A stretch of DNA of 62,251 nucleotides, counting the filler. It is 6 parts of 6 records of this genome, joined end to end, with 100 filler letters (N's around TTAATTAATTAA, not from the genome) between each part and the next. Parts side by side here need not be neighbours in the genome. Positions count along the whole stretch, not along the records: positions 1 to 13,402 come from SRR31156797_21009; 5 more parts are not named here. One strand, 5' to 3'. Made by a program: the position numbers and the translations under genes. This document shows positions 2,675 to 6,958 of the stretch, piece by piece. The first letter of the stretch is position 1. The number at the start of each line of letters is the position of its first letter. Below the pieces are notes generated by a model that was not told where the DNA came from, made no database searches, and worked only from the letters and a program-made list of their open reading frames with translations.

Positions 2675-3163
2675 TTATTGGTCCGTGGAACCAGCTTGCT
2701 CCAACCGGATGAGTTTTTCTTTGATGGCAACGCCATGGGCGAAGCCGGTGAGTTTGCCGTTTGCACCGATCACCCTGTGACACGGCACGATCAATGGGAT
2801 GGGGTTCTTGCTGTTGGCCATGCCCACGGCCCGTGCGGCGTTTTCATTCCCGATGGCCTTTGCGATATCCTTATAAGTACATAAGGTACCATGGGCAATG
2901 TTCGTCAATTCCCGCCACACTTTCTTTTGAAAATCGGTGCCCTTGGGGTTGAGGCGTACATTGAATTTTGTCCGTTTCCCGGTGAAATATTCGTTTATCT
3001 GGTTGATGGTATCCGTAAAAAACGCATGGTTGAGGATCCACTTTTCGGATATCTCAAAACATCGTTTCCCTTCCCCGGTGTTCAGGTGCAGATGGGAAAG
3101 CCCTTTGTCGTCTCCCACCAGGATAATTTCGCAAAACCGGGTTTCAAATCGGGTATAGTACAT
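2675..3163 (-). CDS. ogt: methylated-DNA--protein-cysteine S-methyltransferase
   Basis: GTDFQKKVW, ARAVG and active-site PCHRV motifs. Confidence 0.95.
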   Translation of the reverse strand: MYYTRFETRFCEIILVGDDKGLSHLHLNTGEGKRCFEISEKWILNHAFFTDTINQINEYFTGKRTKFNVRLNPKGTDFQKKVWRELTNIAHGTLCTYKDIAKAIGNENAARAVGMANSKNPIPLIVPCHRVIGANGKLTGFAHGVAIKEKLIRLEQAGSTDQ

Positions 3164-3168
3164 CTTGT

Positions 3169-4620
3169 TTATTCCTTACCGCTTTCCGCATTCCACAGGC
3201 ATAAGGTTGCATAGGATCTGTACGGGCGCCATTTTTCGGCCATTTTTATTATCTCTTTTCCGGACGGCGTTTTATCCCCTTTGGTAAGGGCTTTGATCAC
3301 GCCTAAATCGGTGGCCGGAAAGCTGTCTATCATGCCAAGGCCCCGCATGGCGACATAGTTGACGGTCCATTCTCCGATTCCTTTCGGGTTCGAGAATGCT
3401 TTGAAAAACGTAGCAAACGGCTGATTGGCCGTTAGATGAACATCCTTGGCAAGGATGGCCCTGGCCGCTGTTTGAATGGTTGCCTGCCGTGTCCGGGTCA
3501 ACCCCAGTTCTTCGAGATCGAGTGTCAGCAGTTCCGACGGGGTTGGGAAGAAATAGTCCAGGCCCTTGGGAAAGTTGTCCCCGGTTTTTATCGCCGCGTG
3601 CCTGGCAACCCTGGCTGCCACGGTGGTGGCTGCTTTTACGGAAATCTGCTGTCCGATGATCGCTCTTATAACAAACTCAAAGGGATCAAAGGCAACGGGC
3701 AGTCTTGGTACATGGCCTTTAACCATTCCTTTTGCCAGGTGCTTATCCCTGGCGAATTTGTCATTGATCACCGTAAAATCGGTATCAAGGTCAAACATTC
3801 TGCGAACCCTGTTATGGATCTCCATATAGCATTTTATGTCGTCACAGCCGATTCGTAATTCCAATGCGGACTGTTCCGGGTTGTCCCTGACAATAAAGAA
3901 TCCTTTTGTACTGTCTGTCCTGAAGGTCCTGGCATAGCTTTCCTCCGTTATAACTTCTATCCCCTCCATTGCCCTTTGCTCCATGAAGGAGAGTGTCTGG
4001 CGGAAATTGAACGGTTTTTTGTATTTGAGTAAAAGCGTGGTGTTGTCCGGGGGACCCGTTTGCGTTATTGCTTCTTCCCTTACCATTGTGGGTGTTTTGC
4101 CGAATATGGTTTTAAAAACCTCGTTAAATTGCCGGATCGACCCAAATCCCGATGCAAACGCGATATCCGTGATGGATTGATCCGAATACAAAAGCAGCTT
4201 CTTGGCAAACAGGGACTTGTGATACCTTGCGATCTTGATGGGCGGAACGCCCAGATGATCAACAAAGAGCTTTCTCAAATGTCTGTCCGACAGATGCAGC
4301 TCTTCCGCAAGGTCCTGGAGGGTGTGGTAGTTCAAATAGCCGTCATAGATCTTTTTAAGGGCGTTGTTCACGGTGGCGGCGCCATTGATATTGCCATTGT
4401 AATACTCGACTTCCACATCCGGCCTGCACCGGTAACAGGGCCTGAACCCCTTTTCAATCGCCTCGAATATGGTGTTGAAATAGGTGACATTCTCCTCCCT
4501 GGCAACAGGAGACGGACAAGAGGGTCTGCAGAAAATGCCGGTTGTTTTTACGCCAAACAGGAACTTACCGTCGAAGTTTTTATCCTTTCTTATTCTGGCG
4601 CTGCTGAATTCTTTGTTCAT
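3169..4620 (-). CDS. alkA: Ada-AlkA fusion (Ada Zn domain + AraC HTH + 3-methyladenine DNA glycosylase II)
   Basis: TTGIFCRPSC and RPCYRC Ada Zn motifs, AraC motif SITDIAFASGFGS, QQISV, HhH motif KGIGEWT, FPATD, WRPYRSYA. Confidence 0.93.
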   Translation of the reverse strand: MNKEFSSARIRKDKNFDGKFLFGVKTTGIFCRPSCPSPVAREENVTYFNTIFEAIEKGFRPCYRCRPDVEVEYYNGNINGAATVNNALKKIYDGYLNYHTLQDLAEELHLSDRHLRKLFVDHLGVPPIKIARYHKSLFAKKLLLYSDQSITDIAFASGFGSIRQFNEVFKTIFGKTPTMVREEAITQTGPPDNTTLLLKYKKPFNFRQTLSFMEQRAMEGIEVITEESYARTFRTDSTKGFFIVRDNPEQSALELRIGCDDIKCYMEIHNRVRRMFDLDTDFTVINDKFARDKHLAKGMVKGHVPRLPVAFDPFEFVIRAIIGQQISVKAATTVAARVARHAAIKTGDNFPKGLDYFFPTPSELLTLDLEELGLTRTRQATIQTAARAILAKDVHLTANQPFATFFKAFSNPKGIGEWTVNYVAMRGLGMIDSFPATDLGVIKALTKGDKTPSGKEIIKMAEKWRPYRSYATLCLWNAESGKE

Positions 4621-4777: not shown

Positions 4778-4783
4778 GTGGCC

Positions 4784-5371
4784 ATGGAATCGAAAACAGA
4801 CAAAAAAAAACGGATGATCGCGGTGGGGCTCGAGATCATGTACCTGAAAGGATACAACGCCACCGGAATCCAGGAGATCGTTGACAAGGCAGGGGTGCCC
4901 AAGGGTTCCTTTTACAACTATTTCAAGAACAAGGAACAGTTTGCCGTGGAGATCCTCGACCATTATACCGGGGAGGTGCAGGCACGCCAGGAGACGCTTT
5001 TTTTCGATGCCTCCGTCCCTCCCCTTGCCAGGATTGAAAACTTTTACAAGGGGGTGGTGGACGAGTTTCTCCAGGAGGGGGCCTTCTGCCTTGGCTGCTT
5101 TGCCGCCAATCTGAGCCAGGAGATGGGGGATACCAGCGAAGCCATCCGCAGGGCTGCAGAAGCCTCCATCGCAAGGATGACAGGACCCGTGGAAGCGTGT
5201 CTCGTGGAAGCCCGGGACCGGGGCGATATCTCCATTGTTTATGACGCGTCCATCCTTGCGGCCTACATTCAGAACAGCTGGCTCGGCGCCCTCATGCGCA
5301 TGAAGGCGTCAAAGAGCGGGGAGTCCCTGAAGATTTTTCTCGAGGTGCTGGGCAAGGTGATTCTCAGGTAA
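4784..5371 (+). CDS. TetR/AcrR-family repressor, NemR-like
   Basis: HTH KGYNATGIQEIVDKAGVPKGSFYNYFKNKE and C-terminal FCLGCFAANLSQEM. ATG 4784 lies 7 nt after the -10 box with no RBS. Confidence 0.9.
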   Translation: MESKTDKKKRMIAVGLEIMYLKGYNATGIQEIVDKAGVPKGSFYNYFKNKEQFAVEILDHYTGEVQARQETLFFDASVPPLARIENFYKGVVDEFLQEGAFCLGCFAANLSQEMGDTSEAIRRAAEASIARMTGPVEACLVEARDRGDISIVYDASILAAYIQNSWLGALMRMKASKSGESLKIFLEVLGKVILR

Positions 5372-5386
5372 TTTTTTTAACAAAAT

Positions 5387-5405
5387 TTGAGACGACTGGT
5401 CATAT
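5387..5405. promoter_or_regulatory. second exact copy of the putative TetR operator
   Basis: ttgagacgactggtcatat is identical to 4756-4774; imperfect palindromic core GAC-N5-GTC. Confidence 0.8.
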
Positions 5406-5461
5406 CAAGAAGGTGGACCTTGGGACCGGGTGTTTTTTCCGGATAATTTAAGGAGGGAAGT

Positions 5462-5629
5462 ATGAAGACAGGATTGATGATATTGGTGTTCGTGGGCGTC
5501 TGGGTATTGCTCCAGGCATACATACTGCCAAAACTTGGCATCAGTACATGAATGAGGGATGCCTGCCAGGTGGCGGGCAAGGATGACAAAAAAAAGGCGG
5601 AGCCTTTCCCCATGGACAAGGGAGAGTGA
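5462..5629 (+). CDS. putative small membrane-anchored selenoprotein (55 aa, U-x4-C)
   Basis: RBS AGGAGG; MKTGLMILVFVGVWVLLQAYILPKLGIST-U(TGA 5549-5551)-MRDACQVAGKDDKKKAEPFPMDKGE; SECIS-like hairpin just downstream of the TGA. Confidence 0.7.
5560..5579 (+). promoter_or_regulatory. putative bacterial SECIS hairpin
   Basis: tgcctgcc-AGGT-ggcgggca forms an 8-bp stem (one G-U); the loop starts 16 nt after the TGA and contains GU. Confidence 0.65.
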
Positions 5630-5642
5630 AAACCGCAGTGTG

Positions 5643-5669
5643 AAGGGGCTTCCCAAAGAAGCCCCTTTC
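5643..5669. terminator. intrinsic terminator hairpin
   Basis: aaggggcttc-ccaaa-gaagcccctt, a perfect 10-bp stem 13 nt after the second TGA of the small ORF; convergent with nifS. Confidence 0.75.
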
Positions 5670-5794: not shown

Positions 5795-6958
5795 TTACTC
5801 CTCCTGCTTCCAGAAGGGTGACATGTCCCTGAGCCGCTGGATGATCCCGGGCAGGGTGGCCACGATATGGTCCATCTCCTCCTGGGTGTTGTAGCAGGAG
5901 AGGGAGAAGCGAATGGTGCCGTGGGCCGATTCAAAGGGCACCTTCATGGCCATGAGCACATGGGAGGGATCCAAGGATCCCGAGGTACAGGCGGAACCCG
6001 AGGAGGCGCAGATGCCGGCCTCGTCCATGAGGAGCAGGATGGATTCGCCTTCCACCGCAGTGAAGCCGATGTTCAGGGTGTTGGGCAGCCTGTTCTCCCG
6101 GTCGCCGTTCACCGTTGCCGCTGGAATCAGTTCAACCAGCCGGGTTTCCAGATAATCCCTCAGCCCCCTGATACGGGTGTCCATCTCCTTGAGGTGCGCC
6201 TGTGCCAGCTCGCACGCTTTGCCGAGGCCGATGATGGCGGTGGTGTTCTCCGTGCCTCCCCGCCTCCCTTTTTCCTGGTGGCCGCCGTCCAGGAACGATG
6301 CGAACTTCAGCCCTTTTTGGACGTAGAGGGCGGCAACGCCCTTGGGCGCATGAATTTTGTGCCCGGAGAGGGAGAGCATGTTCACCCCGGCATCCTTCAC
6401 GTCAATGGGGATCTTGCCCACGGCCTGGACCGCGTCCGTATGAAAGAGGATTCCCTTTTCCTGTGCCCGCCGGGCGATTTCCTTGATGGGGAAAATCACA
6501 CCGGTCTCGTTGTTGGCCCACATGAGGGAAATCAGGGCGGTATCGTCCGTCATGCTCTCATAAAGCAGGTCCATGTCAAGGCGGCCTTTGCCGTCAACAG
6601 GGAGAAAGGTCACCCGGTAGCCCTTTTTCTCAAGCCCCTCAAGGGGGTTCTTGATGGCCGGGTGCTCCACCCCCGAGGTGATGATGTGCCGTTTATCCGG
6701 GTTGGCGGCAAGGGCGGCATGGATGGCCGCATTGTCACTCTCCGTGCCGCAGCTTGTAAACACGATCTCGTCGGGCTCGGCATTGATCAGCGCCGCCACC
6801 TGTTCCCTGGCGCGGGTGATGGCCCTGCCCACGTTGCCTCCGAATGAGTGCATGCTCGAGGGGTTGCCATAGAGTTCGCTGAAATAGGGGAGCATTTCTT
6901 CAAGCACTTCGGGTGCAACCCTGGTGGTGGCATTGTTATCGGTATAAACGATTTTCAT
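5795..6958 (-). CDS. nifS: cysteine desulfurase NifS
   Basis: DNNATT, YGNPSS, PLP lysine in SGHKIHAPKG, catalytic SSGSACTS. Confidence 0.95.
   Translation of the reverse strand: MKIVYTDNNATTRVAPEVLEEMLPYFSELYGNPSSMHSFGGNVGRAITRAREQVAALINAEPDEIVFTSCGTESDNAAIHAALAANPDKRHIITSGVEHPAIKNPLEGLEKKGYRVTFLPVDGKGRLDMDLLYESMTDDTALISLMWANNETGVIFPIKEIARRAQEKGILFHTDAVQAVGKIPIDVKDAGVNMLSLSGHKIHAPKGVAALYVQKGLKFASFLDGGHQEKGRRGGTENTTAIIGLGKACELAQAHLKEMDTRIRGLRDYLETRLVELIPAATVNGDRENRLPNTLNIGFTAVEGESILLLMDEAGICASSGSACTSGSLDPSHVLMAMKVPFESAHGTIRFSLSCYNTQEEMDHIVATLPGIIQRLRDMSPFWKQEE

Follow-up and report, generated by a model that had tools for sequence, protein, structure and literature searches.

The question raised by the small gene at positions 5462..5629 (+) of the window (the whole stretch of DNA that was analysed, 62,251 nucleotides (nt) with filler included) is whether its in-frame TGA ends translation or is read as selenocysteine (Sec). 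The gene starts with an ATG at 5462, 5 nt downstream of an AGGAGG Shine-Dalgarno sequence (5451..5456, +), and 29 mostly hydrophobic codons (MKTGLMILVFVGVWVLLQAYILPKLGIST) run up to a TGA at 5549..5551 (+), after which the frame stays open for 25 codons (MRDACQVAGKDDKKKAEPFPMDKGE) as far as a second TGA at 5627..5629 (+), the true stop. Read through, this gives 55 codons plus a stop, with Sec at codon 30 (U30) and Cys at codon 35 (TGC, 5564..5566, +) as its partner in a U-x4-C motif. Relatives also have a purine-rich site upstream of the ATG, and their true stop is a TAA, TGA or TAG located 17–43 codons past the Sec codon. A hairpin with an 8 bp stem and an AGGU loop (tgcctgcc/aggt/ggcgggca; 5560..5579, +) begins 8 nt past the first TGA, its loop beginning 16 nt past it. 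In bacteria, the Sec insertion sequence (SECIS) of the E. coli fdhF type is a stem-loop placed directly after the UGA. The ribosome-binding site, the hydrophobic codons, both TGA codons and the hairpin had all been described in an earlier, sequence-only reading of this DNA, which proposed a small membrane-anchored selenoprotein; each was found by direct reading, and the hairpin by folding as well. Conservation of the TGA and natural homologues with Cys in its place point to U30, and comparison of related sequences puts the probability at roughly 90 % that this is a real selenoprotein gene, with UGA codon 30 decoded as Sec and the hairpin acting as a bacterial SECIS.

A word-indexed protein search with the window peptide returned 12 proteins. 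One of these, P0002 (50 residues, E 2.6e-11), reads ...LPKLGISTCMRDACQVTGK..., with Cys exactly at the position of the window's TGA; the other 11 terminate at ...LPKLG(I/V)(S/A)T. Scanning one genome per species produced 265 pattern matches, with 165 confirmed relatives. The best 80 were kept, all titled as Desulfobacterales-type or 'delta proteobacterium' and four of them from complete genomes; cultured carriers are Desulfosarcina widdelii PP31, D. alkanivorans PL12, D. variabilis and Desulfonema magnum 4be13 (loci L015, L041, L054 and L037). The closest relative (L001, genome G001) is syntenic with the window, 89–93 % identical in DNA and 93 % identical in peptide. The codon after ...G-x-x-T was TGA, followed by x4-Cys, in all 80 loci and in the window. 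A 57-row profile, made up of the window, P0002 and 55 loci picked by eye from the 80 to remove near-duplicates, was run on 401 genomes drawn from across one carrier's phylum. The family was present in 174 of them, and all 150 among the matches listed contained a TGA (29 further matches were unlisted). Thirty phylum-wide loci were fetched, one of them the same place as a locus of the first set (L015), and every one had TGA and x4-Cys. A TAA or TAG at the Sec codon, which the sequence-only reading had named as the mark of an ordinary stop, was found in none of the 110 related loci.

Homologues with Cys at codon 30 had also been anticipated, and they exist, both as P0002 and among more distant proteins. 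Searching 1.84 billion representatives with the profile gave 727 matches at E values up to 0.001, of which 150 were listed. Ninety-two of the 150 stop exactly at profile position 29. In the other 58, counted by eye, the residue at the Sec position was Cys in 30, Trp in 23, Gly in two, Arg in two database proteins and Ser in one; a scripted count put Trp at 22, with one protein misplaced. The Trp and Gly residues probably reflect TGA called under other genetic codes (4 or 25) in metagenome gene calls (e.g. P0014–P0033). The Cys forms have W14, P23, G26, T29, C30 and C35 in common, and where their sources name them at all they are a 'hypothetical protein'. They belong to no Pfam or NCBIfam family, a comparison of ten Cys forms with NCBIfam giving a single chance-level match. 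A metagenome scan built on nine closer Cys forms yielded 80 loci, and in 77 of these (L177, L185 and L186 were left out) the motif was present with Cys in an unbroken frame.

A covarying hairpin, likewise anticipated, was detected among the relatives. In an ungapped alignment of 81 sequences (72 distinct rows), standard pairs occupied 85.9 % of the cells of the eight-pair stem, compared with 33–72 % when the 3' partner was slid, and the covariation score and paired percentage were reached by none of 500 shuffles. Compensatory pairs were seen at stem pairs 15–28 (CG 30, UA 29, UG 5, other 8), 18–25 (UA 63, CG 6) and 13–30 (GC 32, UA 8, other 30). The choice between TGC and TGT at Cys35 covaries with the paired base, and one covarying site is a synonymous third position that pairs with a first position. 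Two loci (L109 and L110) have another downstream peptide and other hairpins. In the window, the hairpin is the core of the minimum-free-energy fold (−22.9 kcal/mol, z −2.06; 4 of 200 shuffles equally good), and it is the comparison between sequences, rather than any single-sequence z-score, that takes the signal beyond chance.

Folding of the 42 nt after the codon separated the two forms. With mononucleotide shuffles, mean z was −1.77 for 102 distinct TGA forms and −0.04 for 67 distinct Cys forms, and z fell below −1.5 in 53 % of the former versus 3 % of the latter. Stems of 5 bp or more whose loop contains a G were present in 97 of the 102 TGA forms compared with 39 of the 67 Cys forms. G+C content was higher in the Cys forms, though their folding was weaker. 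The hairpin is specific to the TGA forms.

Beyond the TGA the peptide is still conserved, Cys35 included, as the sequence-only reading had expected. Codon +5 is invariably Cys (TGT or TGC), and Cys is invariant at this position in all aligned Sec and Cys forms. In the distinct sequences, codon +2 specifies Arg (through CGG, CGC, CGA, AGA, AGG or CGT) or Lys (through AAA or AAG), the exceptions being Ser in four sequences and Gln in three. Downstream of the TGA, codon position 2 is the least variable; in 28 loci without an overlapping sigma factor gene (the window and 27 genome loci), entropies over tail codons +9 to +17 were 1.43, 1.11 and 1.77 at positions 1, 2 and 3. Peptide length is a median of 54 residues (range 46–73) over 110 distinct peptides. 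Were the TGA a plain stop, the product would be a 29-residue hydrophobic peptide, and the hairpin and the downstream conservation would reflect RNA-level regulation or the overlapping sigma gene. For 92 of the 150 representatives listed, gene callers do place the end of the protein at residue 29, the single-sequence hairpin z of −2.06 is only modest, and the sigma start codon of 52 relatives falls 34 or 40 nt past the TGA, so that some of the downstream conservation is shared with another gene. A plain stop is nevertheless extremely unlikely, given the lack of TAA or TAG at 110 loci, the maintenance of Arg or Lys at codon +2 through eight codons and of Cys at +5 even in the 28 loci free of the sigma gene, the Cys-form homologues with an unbroken frame and C-x4-C, the maintained tail length, and the loss of the hairpin where Cys stands for the TGA.

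Genes for selB, selA and tRNA-Sec were present above cut-off in five of five carrier genomes, including the closest relative, G001, which serves as a proxy for the window's host. Several observations pull the other way. Shared descent means that the related loci are not independent samples. Because the hairpin lies over conserved codons (CQVT), some of its conservation may be at the protein level. Co-occurrence with selA is uninformative because selA is nearly universal (371 of the 401 sampled phylum genomes at E values up to 1e-60), and 8 of 20 among the listed genomes without selA, of unstated completeness, still carry the TGA gene. In the window itself no tRNA gene was found, and a search for a second Sec gene among 17 TGA-split frames, eight of which were scanned, gave no domain spanning a TGA.

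The predicted product is a small membrane protein. An AlphaFold2 model based on the 57-row alignment placed a single helix at residues 2–24 (5465..5533, +), with a predicted local distance difference test (pLDDT) of 87–89 for the block, and this transmembrane helix would end in a motif of invariant residues (Q18, Y20, L22, P23 and K24). The description 'single-pass' given earlier fits this model, which is of low confidence beyond residue 24. Over the 110 distinct peptides, net charge is about 0 in the first four residues and +2.07 in the 18 residues past the helix; because of this distribution and the positive-inside rule, the topology is probably N-out/C-in, with U-x4-C at the cytoplasmic face. 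A homodimer prediction with natural Cys forms scored 0.02 against a mark of 0.32, with the alignment unused by the predictor, and is evidence neither way. The peptide matched no NCBIfam family at E values up to 1, TsoA and other selenoprotein models included, and its only Pfam match, to the DMAC1/Dmo2-like family PF15055, was sub-threshold (14.8 bits against a cut-off of 27, E 0.033). The sequence-only reading had named no selenoprotein family for it, and no model of either database matched above threshold.

The genes next to the peptide gene differ between lineages. In 53 of the 80 Desulfobacterales loci, a gene for an extracytoplasmic function (ECF) sigma factor (Sigma70_r2 and r4_2) is directly downstream on the same strand and overlaps the peptide gene, and in 52 loci the sigma gene is followed by that of a soluble zf-HC2 zinc-finger protein of about 90 residues, whose best NCBIfam match is RsrA (5.1e-9; 36 bits against a cut-off of 62.5). 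Two types of upstream neighbourhood occur. In type 1 (29 loci), there are genes for a 4x[4Fe-4S] protein with a twin-arginine translocation (Tat) signal (HybA/HmcB-like) and for a membrane protein of 154–160 residues; in type 2, there are genes for a histidine kinase, a 233-residue protein and a sigma-54 activator. Among type 2 loci (L006–L054), 19 of 27 have a GTAACC-N13-15-GTCT motif 78–128 nt ahead of the start codon, and 7 of 26 type 1 loci have it before the FeS gene. This pattern, which resembles ECF promoters, was defined after inspecting the sequences. It also precedes a stand-alone copy in L057. A sigma-54 promoter pattern was found before the gene in 0 of 81 loci. Just upstream of the ribosome-binding site, 20–30 nt from the start codon, many loci share a word of the form (A/G)TGGAC(A). 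In the two sigma types, 19 of 27 and 18 of 26 loci have TGGACA; the window has GTGGAC at 5413–5418.

The Cys forms have a related context. In the 77 loci, on contigs many of which are short, a homologous zf-HC2 protein is encoded directly upstream in 30 and a thioredoxin upstream in 19; 35 have a gene for a YgaP-like_TM protein directly downstream, and 18 have one for a cytochrome bd-I-like protein downstream. The zf-HC2 sets of the Sec and Cys forms align end to end, with an invariant C and H-x3-C-x2-C, and a hidden Markov model of the Cys set recovers the Desulfobacterales set in 52 of 80 loci; on this alignment the two sets are judged homologous. Cys-form loci (L139–L190, e.g. L176:4239-7171) continue with a series of three genes. 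The first is that of the YgaP-like_TM protein, which has a Cys-rich end (..KLGLRxCC.C..); the second encodes a cytochrome bd-I-like protein of 463 residues with a fused c-type cytochrome domain, and the third a membrane protein, about 375 residues long, that has no Pfam family.

The window belongs to a small subclade with other neighbours. A gene for a TetR-family regulator (4778..5371, +), a putative controller in this subclade, ends 90 nt upstream of the peptide gene and matches Pfam TetR_N and TetR_C_13. The sequence-only reading had placed the peptide under a 'NemR-like sensor', which the analysis did not bear out: the best NCBIfam matches of the regulator, AcuR (137 bits, with a cut-off of 247) and CurR, both fall short of cut-off, and the order TetR then peptide occurs in only three related genomes, namely the window, L019 and L001, the last with two genes inserted between. 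These genes, for a Tat-FeS protein and a 154-residue membrane protein, are found at 2465-4000 of L001 in the place of window 5372-5461. A 16 nt element after the TetR gene (AGACGACTGGTCATAT, 5390..5405, strand unassigned) is kept in the window, L019 and L001 and is a candidate operator; the flanking intergenic bases differ. In L001, the element precedes the inserted FeS gene, and the peptide gene comes further on. In the window, the peptide gene adjoins nifS (5795-6958, −), which is convergent with it, and nifU, an adjacency found only in the three genomes of this subclade; L001 and L019 have about 1.3 kb extra between the peptide gene and nifS, without counterpart in the window, which in L001 contains two HdrB/HdrC-like genes.

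Taken as a whole, the locus is probably best explained as encoding a stress-induced, cytoplasm-facing Sec/Cys redox selenopeptide of the membrane, an interpretation held with less confidence than Sec decoding itself. The product would be a bitopic selenoprotein of about 55 residues, with the helix at residues 2–24, a juxtamembrane QAYxLPKxGxxT-U-x4-C segment and a disordered Lys-rich tail. UGA codon 30 would be read as Sec with the aid of the hairpin 8 nt downstream, Sec30 and Cys35 could form a reversible selenenylsulfide at the inner membrane face, and the peptide may act as an effector or sensor of thiol or oxidant stress. In most Desulfobacterales its gene is the first cistron of an apparently autoregulated operon of an ECF sigma factor and RsrA-like anti-sigma factor; in the Cys-form lineages the gene follows that of the homologous zinc-finger protein, and in the window's subclade that of the TetR-family regulator. 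A membrane redox role in thiol-stress responses is a tentative proposal, suggested by these neighbours. Weighing on the other side, U-x4-C is not a classical redox motif. The sigma factor and zinc-finger protein were both found in only 4 of the 30 phylum-wide loci, neighbours differing between clades and one clade of nine having other neighbours. A close copy of the zinc-finger protein is also missing from G001 (E 1.7e-6) and G005 (6.5e-7), compared with 1.3e-33 in G002, so the association is not obligate. The peptide more closely resembles an effector regulated by stress, which different lineages have put under different regulators.

Other roles for a selenopeptide were weighed against this one. 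Two soft ligands five residues apart beside the membrane could instead bind a soft metal (Hg, Cu, Cd or Zn) or a cluster, making the peptide a membrane metal trap or chaperone. Some Cys forms have extra Cys runs in the tail (e.g. ..TCMSGGCCG..C..), nifS and nifU adjoin the gene in the window, and metal-handling selenoproteins are known, as listed in the accessible part of a review table (PMC13188914). This is unlikely, since the conserved neighbours include no metal transporter or MerR/ArsR-type gene, the conserved partners are of thiol-stress types (an RsrA-like zinc finger and thioredoxin), and the nifS/nifU adjacency is confined to the three genomes of one subclade. Rather less probable is a regulatory partnership with the RsrA-like protein, the peptide being a membrane tether or a redox relay that oxidizes the anti-sigma factor, in the way that Orp1/Gpx3 passes oxidation to Yap1. 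It would account for zf-HC2 adjacency in both Sec and Cys forms despite their different gene order, and the zf-HC2 proteins are soluble, about 82–100 residues long and carry C..H-x3-C-x2-C; against it, three carriers (G001, G005 and G003) have no close zinc-finger copy and 26 of 30 phylum-wide loci have no such protein nearby.

Two further proposals concern particular gene arrangements, and both are very unlikely. The peptide could be the small third subunit of a membrane redox module, together with the Tat-exported 4x[4Fe-4S] protein and the 154–160-residue membrane protein, which has four helices. In 29 of 80 loci the three genes adjoin one another on a single strand, and the L001 peptide gene begins 10 nt after the membrane-protein gene, yet the pair is absent beside the gene in the window and L019, in 27 loci with the sigma gene only and in 28 of 30 phylum-wide loci. 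The second proposal arises from the position of the sigma gene in the Desulfobacterales. The only in-frame ATG before the conserved sigma N-terminus is inside the peptide gene, 32–59 nt before the peptide stop (L002–L080, e.g. L010:2187-2925); it is 34 or 40 nt past the TGA, in the +1 frame, and 3 or 9 nt past the SECIS-type hairpin, whose loop and two stem bases form AGGUGA, a Shine-Dalgarno-like sequence. The UGA and SECIS could then do double duty, with stopping versus Sec insertion and run-on setting the amount of sigma factor. With the same low probability, the stress regulon would thereby have a switch that responds to selenium or SelB status, and the window copy, lacking a sigma gene, would have become a stand-alone form secondarily.

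Other features around the gene are less distinctive. A sigma-70-like promoter match, TTGGGA-16-GATAAT (5420..5447, +), agrees with the consensus at 9 of 12 positions and is a consensus match only. The sequence-only reading had placed a terminator after the gene. A terminator-like hairpin with an 11 bp G+C-rich stem does lie between the peptide gene and nifS (5642..5668, +; −22.5 kcal/mol, z −2.76, 3 of 200 shuffles equally good); its T-run is weak, with only UUUCUGUC after the stem, and it was absent from the list of a consensus scan of the window. No Rfam family matched the window at gathering thresholds, with only chance-level matches around the peptide gene. Further upstream, the window encodes a methylated-DNA-protein-cysteine methyltransferase and an Ada/AlkA-like protein (2675-3163 and 3169-4620, both −); the methyltransferase is a Cys form (active site PCHRV), and in the accessible part of the review its family is counted as a selenoprotein family in some bacteria (PMC13188914).

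Sequences related to the gene were also found in RNA libraries. Three metatranscriptome runs contained only 5–6 % of the sampled words. A 211 nt metatranscriptome contig from a near relative (10 differing letters and one gap) spans 5386–5580, and short contigs from two studies (X3 and X4) match only window 5546–5589, that is, the TGA and hairpin. Upstream, the X3 and X4 contigs diverge into other ...LP(K/R)LG(V)(S/P)T codons and so derive from other family members in RNA libraries. Metatranscriptome contigs were not counted as expression because DNA can be present in such libraries.

Full-text literature searches turned up no description of the family, although supplementary tables may bear on its novelty. 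The 119 families tabulated in a 2026 review of the prokaryotic selenoproteome (PMC13188914) are, in the accessible part of that review, mostly of UxxC/CxxU types, and there none matches this one or is described as a small membrane peptide. Neither a small membrane selenoprotein nor a sigma factor is mentioned in the available portions of an Olavius symbiont paper (PMC1976440), of BSepDB (PMC13326102) or of a 2022 preprint by Haft. This is apparently an undescribed, widespread selenoprotein family of sulfate-reducer-type bacteria. If confirmed, it would be one that standard annotation has missed, by cutting the protein at residue 29 or by reading the TGA as Trp or Gly, and its members would be among the shortest selenoproteins and anchored in the membrane. 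Coupling to an RsrA-like zinc finger and ECF sigma factor would provide a handle on membrane thiol and oxidant stress sensing in anaerobic sulfate-reducer-type bacteria, and the proposal is testable because cultured carriers exist.

The gene resembles selenoprotein genes of the fdhF type in that a stem-loop whose apical loop contains G/U comes within about 10 nt after the in-frame UGA, the loop begins 16 nt past the UGA, and there are Cys homologues. It differs from them in that the peptide is only about 54 residues long, is membrane-anchored and carries U-x4-C. TsoA (NF045695, LULAXC motif) is likewise a small-motif selenoprotein, its Sec and Cys separated by a few residues, but its spacing as listed in the review is U-x3-C, compared with U-x4-C in the peptide. 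The YgaP-like transmembrane domain (Pfam PF11127, DUF2892) shares with the peptide a juxtamembrane motif, W-x-L-x-K-L-G-x-x-x-C, whose Cys aligns with Sec30 in hhalign. That alignment covers only 14 columns at probabilities of 36 % and 16 %, hmmscan gave no match of the peptide to the domain at E values up to 1, and the domain has two helices where the peptide has one; homology was rejected as too weakly indicated. The selenopeptide–sigma–RsrA-like arrangement was not found described in the literature searched. The nearest known counterpart is the SigR-RsrA thiol-stress pair as outlined in its available description, which shares with most Desulfobacterales loci an ECF sigma factor and a small soluble zf-HC2 protein. 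The RsrA match is below cut-off here, and these loci have a selenopeptide gene as first cistron, in overlap with that of the sigma factor.
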